The notes below the pieces were generated by a model. That model worked only from the letters and a program-made list of their open reading frames with translations. It was not told where the DNA came from and searched no databases. Below, piece by piece: positions 17,985 through 62,177 of a DNA stretch of 64,000 bases. A program made the translations under genes and the position numbers. The first letter of the stretch is position 1. Each line of letters opens with the position of its first letter. The DNA is from a virus. The stretch spans positions 96,001 to 160,000 of the IMG/VR virus record IMGVR_UViG_3300037466_003065. The stretch is one strand, 5' to 3'.

Positions 17985-18353
17985 CTACGCCTGTGTGGCC
18001 GATGGCTTCTTCGTGTAGAGCTGCTCGAACATCTCGTCGCCCCCGCCGTGCTGGTGGTGCCAGCATGACCAGCGGAACTGCCGACGCTCGTTCAGGTCGA
18101 CGAACTTGTCCATGGCGTCGTAGAAGGCGCCGACGTTGCCCCTCTTGGCGGCCTTGATGTCGGTGTAAATCTTCTTCTCACTGGCGTTGCACAGAGACGG
18201 GTCGCCCAGCTCGGACTCCATGAACTCGATGCCGTCCGCGACCAACTCCTCCATGGTGGCGTGCGTCGTGATGCGGATGCCGCTGTGGTAGGCGACCTTG
18301 TCGTCGGTGACAATGACGAGGACGAAGTCTCGCTGCCTATTCTGCTCGCTCAT
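17985..18353 (-). CDS. hypothetical protein
   Basis: 122 aa; AGGAG RBS. Confidence 0.7.
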   Translation of the reverse strand: MSEQNRQRDFVLVIVTDDKVAYHSGIRITTHATMEELVADGIEFMESELGDPSLCNASEKKIYTDIKAAKRGNVGAFYDAMDKFVDLNERRQFRWSCWHHQHGGGDEMFEQLYTKKPSATQA

Positions 18354-18373
18354 GCTGGCTCCTGAAAAGTGAT

Positions 18374-18402
18374 GGGCCCGGCTGGGGTTGCCAGCCGGGC
18401 CC
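18374..18402 (-). terminator. intrinsic terminator-like hairpin
   Basis: 12-bp perfect stem GGGCCCGGCTGG / CCAGCCGGGCCC followed by AUCACUUUU on minus. Confidence 0.7.
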
Positions 18403-18426
18403 GGGTCGAAAGAGTAGATGTGGGGG

Positions 18427-18993
18427 TTAGGCGCCGGCCGGGGCGAGCTCCTCCTTGGTCATGGGTTCCCCGGCGGTCGCCGGCGCGTCCGGCTTGCGGC
18501 CAAGAAACTCGTTGAGGATGGCCCGCAGGTCGGCCTCCTCGGGCTCCTTGCCCTCCATGAACTTGATGCCGAGCGTCGCGACCTCCTTGACCTCGGAGAT
18601 CTGGGAGATGGCCCGGCCGGTCATGAAGACCTCGCACGCCGCCTTGTTGACCGTGATCGCGGAGAGGAAGTCCTTCTCGCTGATCGCGCCCTTCTTCATC
18701 AGGGCGTACAGCTTGCCCGGGTCGGGCACCTCCTTCCGCTGCTTGCCGAGGGTGGCCTCGCAGATCTCGCCGACCACCTTGCCGGCGCCCTTCTCGAACA
18801 TCGTGTCCTTGACCTCGGATTTCATTTCGTCGCCGAAGTACGCGACCATCTGGGCGGCGACCTTGATCAGGTCGATGCGGCGGTCGGAGATCTGCTTCTC
18901 CATGTCGACCGCGTCCAGGATCGAGACGTCCTTCTTGGCCGCCTTCGCCTTGGGGGTGCTCGCCTTGCCGTTGTTGCTGGTGTTCTTAGCCAC
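18427..18993 (-). CDS. hypothetical protein
   Basis: 188 aa, Lys/Ala-rich N-terminus, AAGGAGCATC RBS. Confidence 0.75.
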   Translation of the reverse strand: MAKNTSNNGKASTPKAKAAKKDVSILDAVDMEKQISDRRIDLIKVAAQMVAYFGDEMKSEVKDTMFEKGAGKVVGEICEATLGKQRKEVPDPGKLYALMKKGAISEKDFLSAITVNKAACEVFMTGRAISQISEVKEVATLGIKFMEGKEPEEADLRAILNEFLGRKPDAPATAGEPMTKEELAPAGA

Positions 18994-19014
18994 TGTGTGA
19001 TGCTCCTTCTGAAG

Positions 19015-19497
19015 TTAGTCCCGGCGGATCACCCGGCGCACGCGGCCGGATTGATCTGCCTCTTCCGCCGGCTGTCGTCCCCGCCGCCGGCCCGCGGGTG
19101 CCACAGACGCCTGTGGCGTAGGGTGCCTTGCGGTTACGCTCGGCTGTGCCGCAGCGTAACCTACAAGGTTTGAGAGGTCAAGGATTTTGTCGAGGATGTG
19201 GGCCAGCGTTAGTCCGCCGGTATACCCCGCCTCCTCGACGTCCTCGTACCCCTCACGGATCTTCTTGTGAAGCTGCTTGGTGACCTCCAGGAGGGCGTCG
19301 GCCTCCGTGACGTGCGGCACGTGCTTCTTCTCGTTCAGCACCTTCATGCCGGTCGGGCCCCATGCGAACACGGGGTAGTAGAGGTCGCCGATCTTCTCGA
19401 CGCGTCCCACGTACACCTTGTTGGCTCCGTGGTAGTTGTGGAGGGCGGTAACCAACCAGTTACGGCGATCCCTCCAGTTCATGGTGTGATTGGGCAT
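19015..19497 (-). CDS. WGR-domain protein
   Basis: NKVYVGRV...FAWGPTG...KQLHKKIREGY; ends GRVRRVIRRD. Confidence 0.7.
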   Translation of the reverse strand: MPNHTMNWRDRRNWLVTALHNYHGANKVYVGRVEKIGDLYYPVFAWGPTGMKVLNEKKHVPHVTEADALLEVTKQLHKKIREGYEDVEEAGYTGGLTLAHILDKILDLSNLVGYAAAQPSVTARHPTPQASVAPAGRRRGRQPAEEADQSGRVRRVIRRD

Positions 19498-19540
19498 TGG
19501 GCTCCTCGGTATTCAGTTGTAAAGATCGTCGCGACGGGCG

Positions 19541-20566
19541 TCAGTCCATGATGATTCGGCGCCGCACCCGGCCGCTGGACGCATCCTCCTGAAGTTGCCT
19601 GACCGCCTCACCCAGTGGGGCGAACGCCGCCTTCACTGCCTGCTGGATGGACGAGTTCTTGTTCAAGTCGCTGATGCTCACGCCGGCCACCGCGGAGCGG
19701 GCCTCGGCGACGCGCCGCAACACCTCCTCGTCGGCGAACTGGGCGAAGTTCTGCACGCGGTCGAGGACGTTCAGCAGGTTCGTGATCGCCTCGGGCCGCC
19801 GCGTGCCCGACTCCAGCGAGCCCAGGTTGATCTGCTCGCAGACGTCGGCGACCTCGCCGAAGACGTTCGACATGACTGCGTCGAGCTGCTCGCGGGCCTT
19901 GTCCTCACACATCTTCTTGATCGACCGGCGAACCTCCTCGGCGTCGGTGGGCGAGAGCTGGGAGACGTCGACCTCGGCGTCGCTCATCGGGGCAAGCCGC
20001 CGGAGCGTCCACCGCACCGCGAACTTGTCGACGAACGTGTCGGGCGACGGGAGCAGGGGCCTGATCTGGAAGAAGTGTTCGGGGTTCTCCGTCTGGAGCT
20101 GCGGGATCGCCTCGGACTCCCACTTGTCGGCCAGCTCCTGGGCGAGACGGTCGCGTTCCTGCTTCTTGGCCTCGAGCTGCTGGAGCAACTCACCCATCTT
20201 GTACATCGAGACCATGTAGCTGCCGGCGACCTTGTCGTCTCCGCTCTTGTCGTTGACCGCGTAGAACTTCATCAGTTCGCCGATCTCGCGGGCGTTCGCG
20301 TCGAGCCTGCCCCAGAGGTGGTGGGTGTCGTAGATCCAGGACGGCCGCGTCATCCGCTTGGCGCCGACCTCGGTCGTGCCGCCGTACTGGGCCTGGGCCT
20401 CGACCTTCACCTTGTCCTTGTCGCTCTTCGCCCGGCCGCTGGGCCGCTTGATCGTCAGCTCGAGCAGGACGAGGTTGGCCTTGAGGGTGGGCCGCTCCAT
20501 CTCGGCGATGACTTGGTCACTGACTTGGGGACTGCGGCTACGACGGGGGTTCGTTGCAGTTGCCAT
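19541..20566 (-). CDS. DUF3150-like helical protein
   Basis: Start MATATN after AAGGAGCATC. The pattern Y.V.....EL..QLE..K.E...LA...W.....LP....F..KF.V.W resembles DUF3150. Ends GRVRRRIIMD. Confidence 0.55.
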   Translation of the reverse strand: MATATNPRRSRSPQVSDQVIAEMERPTLKANLVLLELTIKRPSGRAKSDKDKVKVEAQAQYGGTTEVGAKRMTRPSWIYDTHHLWGRLDANAREIGELMKFYAVNDKSGDDKVAGSYMVSMYKMGELLQQLEAKKQERDRLAQELADKWESEAIPQLQTENPEHFFQIRPLLPSPDTFVDKFAVRWTLRRLAPMSDAEVDVSQLSPTDAEEVRRSIKKMCEDKAREQLDAVMSNVFGEVADVCEQINLGSLESGTRRPEAITNLLNVLDRVQNFAQFADEEVLRRVAEARSAVAGVSISDLNKNSSIQQAVKAAFAPLGEAVRQLQEDASSGRVRRRIIMD

Positions 20567-57419: not shown

Positions 57420-57953
57420 TTACCTGACGGGCTTGACGACGCGGCTGTTGTGCTGTTCGAACTCCCGAACCTTGTAGGCCGAGTTGGGGTAGAGCCGCAG
57501 GAAGTTGCGACGCTTGGCCTCGTAGCTTTCCTCGACGTTCACGCCCACCCTGTTCTGGAGGATCAGGATGTGGATGCGGTTCAGCTCACGGAGCTTCATC
57601 GCCTCGTGCTGGAAGTCTCTGGCCCGCCCCTTGGCGATCGGTTTGTAGAAGCAGGGATTCTGCTTCGGAGGCTTGGGGCTGCGAGGGCCCTTGCAGCCCG
57701 GCGTCCGCGGCCCGTGGTGCCACGGCGTGGCCTTCAACATCCGCGGCGTGATGCTGACGGTGGACTTGATGCCCAGGCCCACCGGCCCGCCGGCCATGTG
57801 GGGCTTGAGCACGCCGATGTACTCGACCCGGCGCCGGGCACTGGCCTGGGACATGCTCAGGCCGTGCACCTTCGGAGACGGGACGGGGAGCACGCGGCAC
57901 TTCGGGTGGGGCGTGCGGGAGTCGTACACTTTCTCTTTCATGGCATCACCCAA
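57420..57953 (-). CDS. basic hypothetical protein
   Basis: 177 aa, Arg/Lys/Pro-rich. Confidence 0.55.
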   Translation of the reverse strand: MGDAMKEKVYDSRTPHPKCRVLPVPSPKVHGLSMSQASARRRVEYIGVLKPHMAGGPVGLGIKSTVSITPRMLKATPWHHGPRTPGCKGPRSPKPPKQNPCFYKPIAKGRARDFQHEAMKLRELNRIHILILQNRVGVNVEESYEAKRRNFLRLYPNSAYKVREFEQHNSRVVKPVR

Positions 57954-58347
57954 TGCGGTTGAACCGGAACTCGAAGCCGAGGAAGTTGTCGCGGAGCACG
58001 CTGATGCGGGCCTTCGCCTCGTCGAGGGTGTAGCCGGCTTCGACCATCGTCCAGGTGCCGGCGCCGGGGCAGCACTCGGGGATCTGCTGTTCGATCTTGT
58101 AGCGGATCGGCTCGTGCTTCAGCTCCTCCCGCTTGATCTGTTCGGCGAGCTGGGCGCAGTCCCTGCTGCTGAACCCGGCGATCAGGCAGCAGCCGTGCAG
58201 CCGCCGCATCTGCTCGATGGTGCGGCAGGGGACGTACAGCACCTCGTCGACGAGCGTCCAGGTCAGCTCGTTGCGCTCGAGGTGTTCCGACAGACGACAG
58301 GTCTCCTCCTCACCGAGCTTGGAGATGTCGATCGTGAACGTGGTCAT
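57946..58347 (-). CDS. hypothetical protein
   Basis: 133 aa; AGGAGG RBS. Confidence 0.7.
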   Translation of the reverse strand: MTTFTIDISKLGEEETCRLSEHLERNELTWTLVDEVLYVPCRTIEQMRRLHGCCLIAGFSSRDCAQLAEQIKREELKHEPIRYKIEQQIPECCPGAGTWTMVEAGYTLDEAKARISVLRDNFLGFEFRFNRIG

Positions 58348-58375
58348 AAGACCTCCTGTGTTGGAGACGAAAGAA

Positions 58376-58400
58376 GCCGGCGGGTTTGCGGCCCGCCGGC
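58376..58400 (-). terminator. intrinsic terminator
   Basis: 9-bp stem GCCGGCGGG / CCCGCCGGC followed by UUCUUU on minus. Confidence 0.75.
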
Positions 58401-59694
58401 CCCGGTGTACACGATGCTGTCCCGTAGGTCGCTCCAGTTCCCTGTTGCCAGGAGGATTGCGTTATCACCTCATCGTGTCGCTCCCCGGGCATTGCCGGGG
58501 CTGTTGCCTCAGACCCTCCGCGGTCTCCAGTGCGGAGGTGGTCTGTGTCGTCCTACCGTCTCACCCATTGGGCAACGAGAGCTGGGGGCAGGATCGTGGA
58601 CAATGCCACGTCCAACCCAGCCCGCCCCTGCTCCACGGTGTGTTGTGGGCCTGGGCATCTCTGGGAGTACGGCGAAGCGAGCCACCACTGCACGCCGGTC
58701 GGCGTTCTCGACGGGATCTGTGCCTCTGCTACGATCGATCAGTCACGCCCCCATGCGATGGGTCTTTAGCCCTTGCGGCTGGGCATCGGTCACGATCGTG
58801 GCAGGCAAACAGCACGCCCGTCACCCACGCGGCTTGCTAGGCCGAACGGGCGAACGGAGACGACTGCATGCAGCTCATGCTCGCTTCTGTGCTTTCGCTA
58901 GTGCGGCTTTACGCCCGCGTTGCTCCCTTCGGACTCCGCGATACCTTCCGCTGTCGTCCCAGCTCGGGGCTGGTTCTGCGACAGACCACGATCCTTCAAC
59001 GTGCTCGCCTAGCGGGGCCAGGGGCCTGGCCACAAGCCAGACCGCCGCAAGTGGCGTTCCTGCTTTAAATCACGCATCGGCACAAGACCGAAGGTAGGGA
59101 ACGCCCCAAGGCATCAACTCACACTGGGGATCGTGGTCAACGGTACGTCACGCGGCGTCCTCTGGACGCGTCAGAACCGCGGGCGTCGTCACGACGTGCC
59201 GCGGGCCGTTTCAAACCACACTACTACTCACCAAGGTATTCAGAGTCATGTCCCATTCGGGCAGTCCCAACCACACAGTCGGAACATCCGTTTGGGGCTC
59301 GTTTATCACCTTGCCCTTTTGCACCGCGTTACCGGTGCGTTTTAAGGTCGTTTCTTGAGGGTAACGACCCTGAGCAACTTTACACCACCGGAACTATCCC
59401 GCATCCACCGGCCATGAACCCCCGAAGGGGCGGATGGGCGGCTTCCGCTGATAGCCCGCTATGGGCCACCGACCCGGCTCGCCTTGCGAGCTTTGCGAGG
59501 TTGGCTTCCGCCATTCAAGAACCCACCTAGTGGGCGTGCTGTCCGATTCTCAGCACCCGCTGAACGTGGTTCCCGACGAATCGGGGCGACGTTGAGCAGT
59601 CGACCATTGGGGCCGACGCTTGCACCGCAGTCTCTACCGCGTGCAAGGCATCACCTTTGGCCAGTGGCTACCACCGGCCGCAGGGTTTGATTAG
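58401..59694 (-). ncRNA. candidate large structured non-coding RNA (3' portion), unassigned class
   Basis: No credible ORF over ~1.3 kb. More than 15 hairpins, UUCG loops on minus at ~59420 and ~59575, GAAA/GCAA/GUAA loops, and an 11-bp long-range stem (58984-58994 with 59128-59138). Ends at a terminator. Confidence 0.55.
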
Positions 59695-60559
59695 GACAAG
59701 CGAATAGGCACTGTGAGACCCCCGAGCTGGACACTACAAACGACCCCCTTCACTCACGACTACTCCCGAACCACGACCCGGCAGAACTGCGCGGCCGTTT
59801 CCGACCGGTTCAGCAGAACCTGCTCGAAGGCCAAGTCGACGGGCTTGGTTGCCCCGTCGATGGTCTTGACCGACCCGCCGGACAGCGCCCGCACCGCGTT
59901 CATCGCGGCCGGCACGCGGCCCCACGCCCGGTTGACCCACTCCTGCGCCTTCATGAAGTGCTTCGCCACCTCCTCTTTCTTTGCGGCGACCCACTTCTCC
60001 ACCAGCGCCGCATCCTGCGGCTTGACCTCGACGGTGCCGATCTTGCCACCGTCCTTACGGGCGAGCGCCTCGGCGTCAATCGCCTTGAGGCGAGCGTCGC
60101 GGTGCGCCTCAAGTGCGGCCAAGACCTCCACGGTGGGGATCTTGGCGAGGAACCCTTGCGTCACGGTGCGAGCCTTCATGGGCTTGCCACCGTTGCGAGC
60201 CTTGCAGCACGCCTTCACGGCCGACCCGAGCATCGGGCCGGCGCCCGTCCCCTTGTCGAAGATCCCGAAGATCAGGGCATACGCCGCGGCGCTGGTGCGC
60301 TTGCGGAGTTCGCCCATGTCGGCCTTGCGGAGGTCTTGGAGGTTCTGGGCCGTCGCATCGAGAACGAGAACATCCTCGTGCGAGAAGCCCAGCGCCTCAT
60401 CAATCGCCGCTGCCGCCTTCGAGACCGAACGAGAAGAAACTTTCGTGTCCTTAGCCATTGTCAACTCCCGCCGGAACCTGTCCGGCATGTTAGAGACCAA
60501 CAAACAGAACGATAGAACCAGAACCAGCTAAGGGGTCTCACAGTACCTATTCACTTGTC
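59695..60559. repeat. 28-bp inverted repeat pair flanking the ORF at 59760..60458
   Basis: 59695-59722 GACAAGCGAATAGGCACTGTGAGACCCC vs the reverse complement of 60532-60559, GACAAGTGAATAGGTACTGTGAGACCCC; 26/28 identical. Confidence 0.95.
59760..60458 (-). CDS. Ala/Lys-rich helical hypothetical protein nested in the inverted repeat
   Basis: Start MAKDTK after GGGAG; typical codon usage; no recognised family motif. Confidence 0.8.
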   Translation of the reverse strand: MAKDTKVSSRSVSKAAAAIDEALGFSHEDVLVLDATAQNLQDLRKADMGELRKRTSAAAYALIFGIFDKGTGAGPMLGSAVKACCKARNGGKPMKARTVTQGFLAKIPTVEVLAALEAHRDARLKAIDAEALARKDGGKIGTVEVKPQDAALVEKWVAAKKEEVAKHFMKAQEWVNRAWGRVPAAMNAVRALSGGSVKTIDGATKPVDLAFEQVLLNRSETAAQFCRVVVRE

Positions 60560-60830
60560 AAAGAACATGCCTGCGCACGCTCTAGTCGACGGTCGCTCTT
60601 TGCGTAGGGTATGGGCTTATCCCAATGGGGCACCTAGGCACGTACATCGCCTAGGGGTTCTACCCACGTTGACCGCTTGACGTCTCACGACGTAGGCGGG
60701 GTTCGGTGCGGCTGCCGCACCGTCAACGGGCATCGCGTTTTGTCCACCTAGACCCACGACACGCGGCGAACCGCGTAACGTGAGCGGGGGTTTCTCCCAC
60801 GCGACCCACACGAACACGACCGAAGATTTC
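60560..60830 (-). ncRNA. hairpin-rich non-coding segment (candidate 5' portion of the structured RNA)
   Basis: Stems CCTAGGC/GCCTAGG, GGTGCGGC/GCCGCACC and ACGCGG-UUCG-CCGCGT (minus), plus a GAAA-type loop near 60790. Confidence 0.45.
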
Positions 60831-61213
60831 AAAGAGCAACATCACGAGGCACCAGTTAGACGACTGCGGCGAATCCGGCAGAGGTGCGCGGGGTGGGGGG
60901 CTTTGGGATCGGGCGACCTGGTCGGCCTGGCCGACCTATATGGGCAGGCTTTCACATAAGGGTCAGGCCAAACTCAAAATGGGCGGGGGCCTCTCCCAAT
61001 CACATCTGCGAACATGGATCAGATCGAAGGGCGGGCTCGAAAATTAGGCGGGGGCCAGAGTCACATGACCATGACACAGGGGGCGGGGGTGGTCTGAGCT
61101 GGATCGAAAGGGGCGGGGGCGAGATGGGGTCGGTTCAAAATTTTACGGGGGAAGGGTCGAAATAATCAGGGGCATGTTCGGGTTTCTGTTGTTCCACTCA
61201 CAATTAGTTCTAC

Positions 61214-61606
61214 GTGGAACACGAGCTCATCCTTATGTTCCACAGGGGAACATCCGATGTCGGGGGCATGGATTTCAACACGGGCTACATCATGGGGCTG
61301 GTCGTTGGCGGGGGCTGCTTCACGATCCACCAGAACAAGAAGAGTGGGCAGGTCACACCGACGTTCAGCCTGAAGCTGCACGAGCGGGACTACCAGCCAC
61401 TACTCGACCTGCAGAAGCTGTTGGGAGGGACGATCTACGGGCCCTACAACCACCAGAAGCGGAAGTATCGGGCGCTCTTCGTGCGAGGGGCTGATCTGGC
61501 GAAGGCGATCCCTGTGTTCGACAACTACCTGCCGAAGAGCCACAAGAGGGATCAGTTCTCGGCTTGGTTGGAGCACGAACGGGTCAGGGTGCTGTGGCAG
61601 AAATGA
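61214..61606 (+). CDS. single-motif LAGLIDADG-fold protein, catalytic acidic residue missing
   Basis: GYIMGLVVGGGCF, then F.L.L...D...L..L...LGG.IY...R.....L...I.P.FD.YL..S.K..QF..W. Likely start is the ATG at 61268. Confidence 0.8.
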   Translation: MEHELILMFHRGTSDVGGMDFNTGYIMGLVVGGGCFTIHQNKKSGQVTPTFSLKLHERDYQPLLDLQKLLGGTIYGPYNHQKRKYRALFVRGADLAKAIPVFDNYLPKSHKRDQFSAWLEHERVRVLWQK

Positions 61607-61607
61607 A

Positions 61608-61688
61608 GGCCCAGAGGAGGGAGTCGAACCCTCGGTGCGTGTCAAGCACTAGCCGCTGCGTCCGTGCCGTTGGTAGACTTCACTGGGC
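61608..61688 (-). tRNA. tRNA-like element with degenerate anticodon arm (loop centred on CUA)
   Basis: Acceptor GCCCAGTG/CTCTGGGC (one mismatch), D-arm GTCT/GGAC with GG, canonical T-arm GAGGG-TTCGACT-CCCTC. The anticodon stem is bulged, U33 is absent and CCA is not encoded. Confidence 0.5.
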
Positions 61689-61841
61689 AGAAGAAACATC
61701 GGGCGGCCAAGGTCTTCTTCATGAACTGAGAGCTGCCTCACCGATAACTCTCCTGTCTCGCAGATCACCCACCTTCGAGACAAAGCCCGAACCCTGCGGC
61801 TACTCCCATGGTCGCATGGTTTTTCTTTGCGCATAAAAGAA

Positions 61842-61867
61842 CCCCGCTGTGTGGGTGATCAGCGGGG
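61842..61867 (-). terminator. intrinsic terminator
   Basis: CCCCGCTG / CAGCGGGG stem followed by UUCUUUU on minus. Confidence 0.7.
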
Positions 61868-61931
61868 CGCTTTCCCTACCCGACCGGGCCTGATAGCAAC
61901 ACACCACCAGGTGGGGATCCATGTCGGGCAG

Positions 61932-62177
61932 CTAATTCTGTGCTGCGTGCAGTGACGCGAGTAGCTCGTCGACGACGGCGGTTGTAATCGAGTTCCGGGC
62001 CTGACGCAACGCCTCGATCGCCTGGTCGATCTGGTCTACGTCAAGGGTGCCGTCGAACCCGAGCAGGGTGACCGTGAAGTGGGCGGCACTGGTGCCACTG
62101 GTCAGGGGGGACTGCTGGACGTGGGCCTCGAAGCCTCCGTGCATGATGAGCATGGCACTCCTTTGCTGAAGTGGCAC
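61932..62177 (-). CDS. small hypothetical protein (start uncertain)
   Basis: Amphipathic C-terminal helix; followed by a terminator. Confidence 0.5.
   Translation of the reverse strand: MPLQQRSAMLIMHGGFEAHVQQSPLTSGTSAAHFTVTLLGFDGTLDVDQIDQAIEALRQARNSITTAVVDELLASLHAAQN

Follow-up and report, generated by a model that had tools for sequence, protein, structure and literature searches.

What does this phage genome, otherwise dense with genes, encode in the approximately 1.3 kb between positions 58401 and 59694 of the window (the whole 64,000-nt stretch of DNA that we analyzed, bases 96001-160000 of an IMG/VR record of 184,787 bp with 64% G+C)? An initial annotation found no credible ORF there and proposed an unclassified large structured RNA. 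On the first point we agree: codon signal is lacking over 58350-59750, where the GC-frame plot is flat (maximum minus minimum, 0.04-0.28), and the plot is flat again over 60460-61170; between the two flat stretches lies a single minus-strand gene (59760-60458). Flanking genes have GC3 values of 0.9-1.0 in the same plot, and a GC3 of about 0.9 is expected of real genes in a genome with such a G+C content. The plus-strand ORFs 57673-59097 and 58133-58840 (474 and 235 aa) were rejected as genes because they show no GC3 or codon signal.

We fetched relatives of the locus with the protein encoded by the embedded gene as search anchor and added one more, L057, by a search with a 177-aa protein encoded downstream. 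Four metagenomic lineages (L003, L004, L005, and L057; five including the window) have the window's layout: a noncoding leader, a stem arm, a gene of 216-262 aa, a second stem arm, about 1.4 kb of noncoding sequence, a terminator, and downstream genes; the L057 contig is limited to the last 830 nt at the RNA's 3′ end and the genes that follow. Identity of the embedded protein to that of the window is 65% in L003, 59% in L005, and 46% in L004, and the noncoding part is about 70% identical to the window across relatives, the same level as the gene. Independent assemblies of at least eight other JGI samples (L059-L066) contain the same phage, with 99.4-100% identity over the locus, which marks it as a recurrent environmental phage and rules out an assembly artifact. 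Two Logan runs also list the same phage (their DNA was not compared). The locus divides into the following predicted features:

58363-58403, minus strand: intrinsic-terminator-like hairpin of 12 bp, 10 of them G-C, at 58403-58373, with an interrupted U-rich tail, UUUCGUCUCC
58404-58673, minus strand: subdomain at the 3′ end of the downstream RNA, in which several hairpins are conserved (for example, 58545-58532/58521-58510)
58674-58887, minus strand: rod domain, an irregular hairpin that extends over about 50 bp and has a single side branch
58888-59224, minus strand: central subdomain, variable in length and sequence, closed in the window by 59138-59128/58994-58984
59225-59694, minus strand: 5′ subdomain of the downstream RNA (alignment A6: window, L003, L004, and L005)
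59695-59730, minus strand: 3′ arm of the ORF-looping stem, an inverted repeat with 60524-60559
59760-60458, minus strand: gene for a 232-aa all-helical protein (ATG at 60458, GGAG upstream; GC3 0.8-0.98)
60524-60559, minus strand: 5′ arm of the ORF-looping stem, its outer 13 nt, GACAAGUGAAUAG, invariant in four lineages
60560-60935, minus strand: 5′ leader or 5′ domain, with conserved blocks CCAAAGCCCCCC and GUGCUCUUUGAAA and few covarying helices (alignment A3)
60937-61120, no strand assigned: conserved promoter-like block and three iteron-like repeats, TCRAAA..GGCGGGGG

GC3 is flat across the gap in the window, L003, and L004 alike. Substitutions between the window and L003 or L004 fall evenly over the three codon phases (P = 0.42 and 0.93, respectively), in contrast to the adjacent ORF, where they pile up on one phase (P < 0.001), and indels in the gap are mostly not multiples of three (9 of 31 and 8 of 39 are). 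The protein-like codon conservation among homologs that would have spoken against the initial proposal is therefore missing, and the region is noncoding. A second 1.4-kb gap (genome positions 18201-19599), which appeared with crude gene calling, was set aside; it has moderate codon signal and probably contains small genes.

The strongest single piece of evidence for what the region does encode is, as judged by comparing lineages, the predicted stem that closes around the ORF. This stem has 36 bp in the window and 35-38 bp across four lineages, all of those with both sides on the contig. Its inner 17-25 nt are rewritten in each lineage (6-7 of 17 positions identical), yet the two arms remain complementary: the four lineages together have 145 stem positions, comprising 127 Watson-Crick pairs, 14 G·U pairs (read in the minus sense), 1 A·C, and 3 other mismatches. 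The 14 G·U pairs would be mismatches on the opposite strand, which shows pairing at the RNA level and on the minus strand; by the same token, the leader and the downstream domain belong to one transcript. The possibility, raised initially, that the structured region continues into 60560-60830 is thus upheld, the two being joined by the 36-bp stem 59695-59730/60524-60559. Transposon ends were rejected as the source of the inverted repeat, since the four lineages are syntenic and the mismatches are one-strand G·U wobbles.

Strand is less certain away from this stem. The initial annotation had cautioned that a wobble in at least one stem (approximately 58721-58807) favors the plus strand. The minus strand prevails in the closing stem (14 to 1), but among the internal helices predicted on both strands its lead (18 wobbles versus 9) is not significant (P = 0.12), and at the 3′ end the count is 0 versus 3. 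Minimum free energy (MFE) was lower for the minus strand in all three full-length sequences, and the terminator also lies on that strand. The minus strand is well supported overall and not proven for every subdomain.

Could the hairpins instead form in DNA, as part of a replication origin or of a protein-bound or single-stranded element? The locus is the first unit in a minus-strand run of roughly 68 genes. Transcription diverges here, as might suit such an element. So might the repeats just upstream: three copies of TCRAAA..GGCGGGGG lie at 60974-61120 with a spacing of exactly 65 nt, with weaker copies nearby, and the motif in this form occurs nowhere else in the 185-kb genome. It is present in several copies in L003-L005, and the conserved control block was also detected upstream of the gene for a distant protein homolog in L011 (nhmmer, E = 4e-5). 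We regard the segment 60937-61120, which precedes the RNA, as a probable control region acting at the DNA level; its repeat array may be a binding site for a regulator or an origin protein. Within the stem, however, 14 G·U against 1 A·C on one strand is a mark of RNA pairing; cumulative GC skew does not turn here; and about 1.3 kb of nested helices with varied tetraloops is unmatched in origins of double-stranded DNA phages, for which we know of no counterpart. We regard a DNA-level element as very improbable.

The many stems listed initially are all found in the sequence, including GGTCGTT/AACGACC, as are the minus-strand UUCG hairpins (CCCC-UUCG-GGGG at 59420-59430 and CCCGA-UUCG-UCGGG at 59572-59586). 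RNAalifold pair counts are partly circular: two coding alignments still gave approximately 87% paired cells and 20-22% double-changed pairs. Because coding controls also score, such counts alone are no proof, and we added single-sequence and alignment-shuffle tests. When pairs from the MFE fold of one sequence were checked in another lineage, 393 of 722 (0.54) of those changed on both sides were still canonical overall and 0.62-0.66 between the window and L003, compared to 0.42 and 0.39 for two coding controls and 0.35 for a random null. For pairs in the window's MFE fold that changed on both sides, 80 of 130 were still canonical in L003 and 62 of 122 in L004 (null, 35%). Consensus folding energies in 200-column windows were scored against column-shuffled alignments; z ranged from -3.9 to -17 in the RNA, compared to +0.2 to -5.3 in genes. 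Folding energy of the single sequence does exceed that of dinucleotide-shuffled controls, as the initial proposal needed, but only modestly (z about -2; -2.2 and -2.3 for the two halves on the minus strand, -1.3 and -2.6 on the plus strand). With four or five lineages only, R-scape-type statistics are impossible. Within these limits, comparison of the lineages shows that the predicted base pairing is conserved with compensatory changes, in excess of coding controls. The general criterion for a conserved structured noncoding RNA, namely, no coding signal together with compensatory changes above controls, is met.

Support is not uniform along the locus. In the 5′ subdomain, 40 of 86 predicted pairs changed on both sides, compared to 18.2 ± 2.9 after shuffling (0 of 500 shuffles reach the observed count) and 5-14 with slid partners; the alignment-shuffle z is -3.9 to -17. 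Its covarying helices include 59655-59636/59631-59612 (18 bp, 9 of them compensatory), 59678-59671/59667-59660, 59371-59363/59352-59344, 59283-59277/59272-59266, and 59338-59334/59325-59321, the last of which carries a GUAACG loop. Some replacements are plain by eye: the hairpin GGUCGUU/AACGACC becomes GGUUCUU/AAGAACC and ACUCC/GGAGU in relatives, and CCCC-UUCG-GGGG becomes GCCA-GCAA-UGGC in L003. Conservation peaks in the rod domain, whose core spans 98 nt (58722-58819); in alignment A4, RNAalifold gave 54 pairs with 97% of cells paired, and 23 of the 54 changed on both sides (8.7 ± 2.2 after shuffling, reached in 0 of 500; 1-7 with slid partners). The 3′-terminal subdomain (alignment A7: window, L003, L004, and L057) has 50 pairs, 14 of them changed on both sides versus 3-6 with slid partners, and an alignment-shuffle z of -4.6 to -11.5.

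The perfect 11-bp long-range helix described initially (58984-58994 with 59128-59138) forms in the window's MFE fold, where it closes the central subdomain and is followed by a conserved hairpin, 58984-58951. Its L003 counterpart, at the same position, is GGUUGAUC/GAUCAACC, with four compensatory changes as judged by eye, and the hairpin changes from CCAGC/GCUGG in the window to CGUGA/UCACG in L003. Structural support for the leader is weaker than for the downstream RNA: we identified the helices 60928-60922/60872-60867 and 60655-60650/60638-60633, and 0.45 of pairs were kept in the single-sequence test, near the coding controls. At the other end, the intrinsic terminator seen initially is confirmed as a minus-strand hairpin with a U-rich tail at 58403-58373, and it has both hallmarks of such an element on the transcribed strand: a stem rich in G+C and, after it, a run of U. 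L003 and L057 retain both features with compensatory changes, and L004 has neither; since the tail is interrupted, termination is probably partial.

Does the RNA belong to a known family? A search of the whole window against Rfam 15 gave nothing at gathering score, and cmscan of 58200-61300 with permissive filters returned only four chance-level hits (E = 1.7-8.8). No Rfam family matched L003, L004, L005, L011, or L057 at E ≤ 1. The GOLLD covariance model matched neither the window's region (E ≤ 10) nor the relatives (E ≤ 1), and the same was true of the ROOL model. The only group II intron signal was a 17.8-bit match to a plastid domain V (gathering score, 61; E = 1.7) that lies inside coding sequence. 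There was no Intron_gpI match at E ≤ 10, and the flanks of the RNA are noncoding or separate genes; neither Rfam nor ARAGORN found a tmRNA, RNase P RNA, rRNA, or tRNA within 58350-61170. These results exclude GOLLD, ROOL, introns, tmRNA, and RNase P as matching families, and they bear out the failure, reported initially, to recognize RNase P, tmRNA, or a group I or II intron: Rfam is empty of these both at gathering score and at E ≤ 10.

The locus might instead hold a relative that has diverged or decayed beyond the reach of the Rfam models, whether a group I or II intron remnant tied to the adjacent LAGLIDADG gene or a GOLLD/ROOL-type RNA. Introns typically carry ORFs looped out on a stem, and a plus-strand gene for a 130-aa LAGLIDADG_1 homing endonuclease (61214-61606; Pfam E = 1e-11) lies approximately 650 nt upstream, just beyond the iterons and antisense to the RNA; GOLLD, for its part, can hold tRNAs in the linker between its 5′ and 3′ parts (PMC12286853). 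Even at E ≤ 10, however, none of the intron, GOLLD, and ROOL models scores; the endonuclease gene is encoded antisense, falls beyond the conserved RNA, and has no counterpart upstream in L003, L004, and L005; the flanks are not exons of any gene; and the embedded protein has no reverse transcriptase or endonuclease domain detectable with Pfam. From its sequence context, the LAGLIDADG gene looks like a free-standing insertion in this phage. We give a diverged member of a known family very little credence.

As an analogy, the comparison with GOLLD and ROOL that accompanied the initial proposal holds; as a claim of membership it does not, there being no match to either model. GOLLD and ROOL, whose functions are unknown, are large cage-forming RNAs of phages. 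Like them, the RNA predicted here is phage encoded, at least several hundred nucleotides long, dense with covarying helices, and without known function. In GOLLD, a 5′ part that is less conserved than the 3′ part is joined to it by a linker, in which tRNA genes are sometimes found (PMC12286853); the locus described here likewise has a conserved 3′ domain and a weaker 5′ part, which in this case flank the embedded gene. Unlike GOLLD and ROOL, it is about twice the size (approximately 1.3 kb plus a 0.37-kb leader), it carries as its insert a protein-coding mRNA that a 36-bp duplex closes off, it lacks an adjacent functional tRNA island, and it is known from five metagenomic lineages only.

The stem has parallels of its own. 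Processing stems of rRNA operons and phage RNase III sites are likewise long-range duplexes flanking a functional RNA, and 35-38 bp is long enough for RNase III, which cuts perfect duplexes of this length; a duplex of that size is kept in four lineages, with its G·U pairs on the RNA strand, although cleavage is inferred. Compared with the rRNA operon, the arrangement is reversed: the stem loops out an mRNA, and the structured RNA lies to either side. Group I and II introns with an ORF in a peripheral loop also extrude a gene from a stem within a large folded RNA, and here too a homing endonuclease gene is nearby; unlike in those introns, there is no intron core, there are no exons, and the 3′ portion exceeds group II intron domains V-VI about 10-fold in length.

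The embedded gene itself offers few clues. An AF2 model of the 232-aa protein has a pLDDT of 80. Homologs exist (P0002-P0008 and P0012-P0014), but we found no match in Pfam, PHROG, Foldseek PDB, or GenBank phages; VIA-align returned only generic helical hairpins (Z < 8), and ESM Atlas returned only viral hypothetical clusters. Distant homologs of 40-44% identity (L006, L008, and L143) have the next gene directly downstream and lack the downstream RNA; the flanking stem is absent from these three as well as from L011, L144, and L145. Homologs in L006, L008, and L143 without RNA or stem indicate that the protein does not need the RNA, and a partnership between the two is unproven.

The close association of RNA and gene nonetheless raises the question of whether the noncoding parts are merely oversized 5′ and 3′ untranslated regions of the 232-aa gene's mRNA, acting only in cis to protect it from nucleases or to gate translation or terminator read-through. 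RNA, ORF, and terminator are encoded on the same strand, without space for a promoter of the RNA's own; the stem arm lies only about 30 nt beyond the stop codon, and the RNA has been found only beside the 232-aa gene. Moreover, the terminator lies about 15 nt short of the next gene's ribosome-binding site (start codon, ATG at 58347), so that downstream expression needs read-through. Against this stands the scale of the structure: 1.3 kb of covarying helices far exceeds any known stabilizer, attenuator, or antiterminator, and we know of none that uses nearly so much. Distant homologs of the gene do without the RNA. Blocks of loop and junction sequence are, in addition, conserved as strongly as the helices, which points to possible tertiary contacts or ligand binding. 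A purely cis-acting untranslated region is thus unlikely in our judgment, though we do not dismiss it.

The initial idea of an unclassified large structured RNA is supported by its noncoding homologs, by their compensatory changes, and by the absence of an Rfam family. We think it probable that the locus specifies a new class of very large, two-part structured phage RNA, made from the minus strand and cotranscribed with an mRNA that it loops out; we have no transcript data, and function is inferred. The predicted architecture is shown by alignment to be conserved in five lineages. A single minus-strand transcript of about 2.5 kb or more would start near 60930, below the control region (the 5′ end is inferred), and would run through a leader of about 370 nt, the 232-aa mRNA, the approximately 1.3-kb folded RNA (59694-58404), and a leaky terminator at 58403-58373. 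By pairing the leader's 3′ end with the 5′ end of the 1.3-kb domain, the stem of 35-38 bp would place the ORF in a closed loop and hold the noncoding parts together. As a substrate for host RNase III, the duplex could then be cleaved, which would free the mRNA and leave a stable noncoding RNA; this, too, is inferred. The weak terminator would allow the RNA to be abundant while some transcription continued into the long leftward gene run. We further infer that the folded RNA may act in trans, in assembly or as a scaffold like other ornate phage RNAs, possibly with the embedded protein.

At about 1.7 kb, the noncoding RNA would be among the largest structured viral RNAs. More speculatively, and we hold this to be doubtful, the two parts clamped by the stem could form an RNA machine of about 1.7 kb: a self-assembling cage, a ribonucleoprotein with the 232-aa protein, or a new large ribozyme. 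If true, it would be the largest nonribosomal structured viral RNA known, made at the start of the leftward gene run, and the first of its kind whose fold encloses a protein gene of its own. Beyond ribosomes, introns, and RNase P, we know of very few large structured RNAs. OLE, GOLLD, ROOL, and raiA each opened new structural biology, the latest instance being RNA-only cages resolved by cryo-electron microscopy. The candidate is larger than any of these four, its domains can be mapped clearly, and its loops and junctions are conserved; a protein-coding message that a long duplex excludes from the fold is, to our knowledge, an arrangement undescribed for such RNAs. It can be transcribed in vitro as it is, so that folding, self-assembly, RNase III cleavage, and protein binding are testable without the host.

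How widespread is this RNA? Covariance model R1, built on the 98-nt rod core, scores 95-113 bits in the window, L003, L004, and L057. When it was applied to 121 loci pulled by DNA patterns from GTDB genomes and IMG/VR, it gave <20 bits or nothing; the 45 loci among GTDB contigs found with a DNA pattern all scored <20 bits, that is, at chance level. Searches of IMG/VR with protein patterns and three DNA patterns gave nothing or chance matches, GenBank phages held nothing similar at the DNA or protein level, and a JGI metagenome scan yielded only the distant L011. Profiles of the RNA run with nhmmer against L006, L008, L011, and L143-L145 found nothing significant except the promoter/iteron block in L011. 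The RNA class is rare in what could be searched.

Several distant homologs of the embedded gene adjoin gaps of their own. The P0014 lineage has about 1.2 kb of noncoding sequence downstream (contig positions 1112-2331), L143 has a gap of about 1.1-1.2 kb upstream of its homolog (354-1471), and another gap adjoins the homolog in L144 (2000-2795); none of the three contains called genes or codon signal. Similarity of the L143, P0014, and L144 gaps to this RNA is undetectable. L143 also encodes a phage integrase.

Directly past the terminator in the window is a minus-strand gene of 133 aa (57946-58347); L003 shows no DNA match to it and has a 64-aa gene in that position. The gene that follows encodes the 177-aa protein, conserved at 73-78%. 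On the other side of the locus, a tRNA-like element that is not found in the relatives adjoins the stop codon of the LAGLIDADG gene (61607-61890, minus strand; core, 61609-61688). Its T arm, GAGGGUUCGACUCCCUC, is canonical, and its acceptor stem has 7 bp. The score against Rfam tRNA-Sec is only 21 bits (E = 0.23), and ARAGORN, at relaxed thresholds only, reports either an unusual tRNA or a tmRNA-like RNA of 284 nt whose tag is atypical. The best σ70-like promoter match in the area (62207-62180, minus strand; TAGACA-16-TATGAT, 10 of 12 positions) sits upstream of a small minus-strand gene at approximately 61932-62153, which precedes the tRNA-like element.
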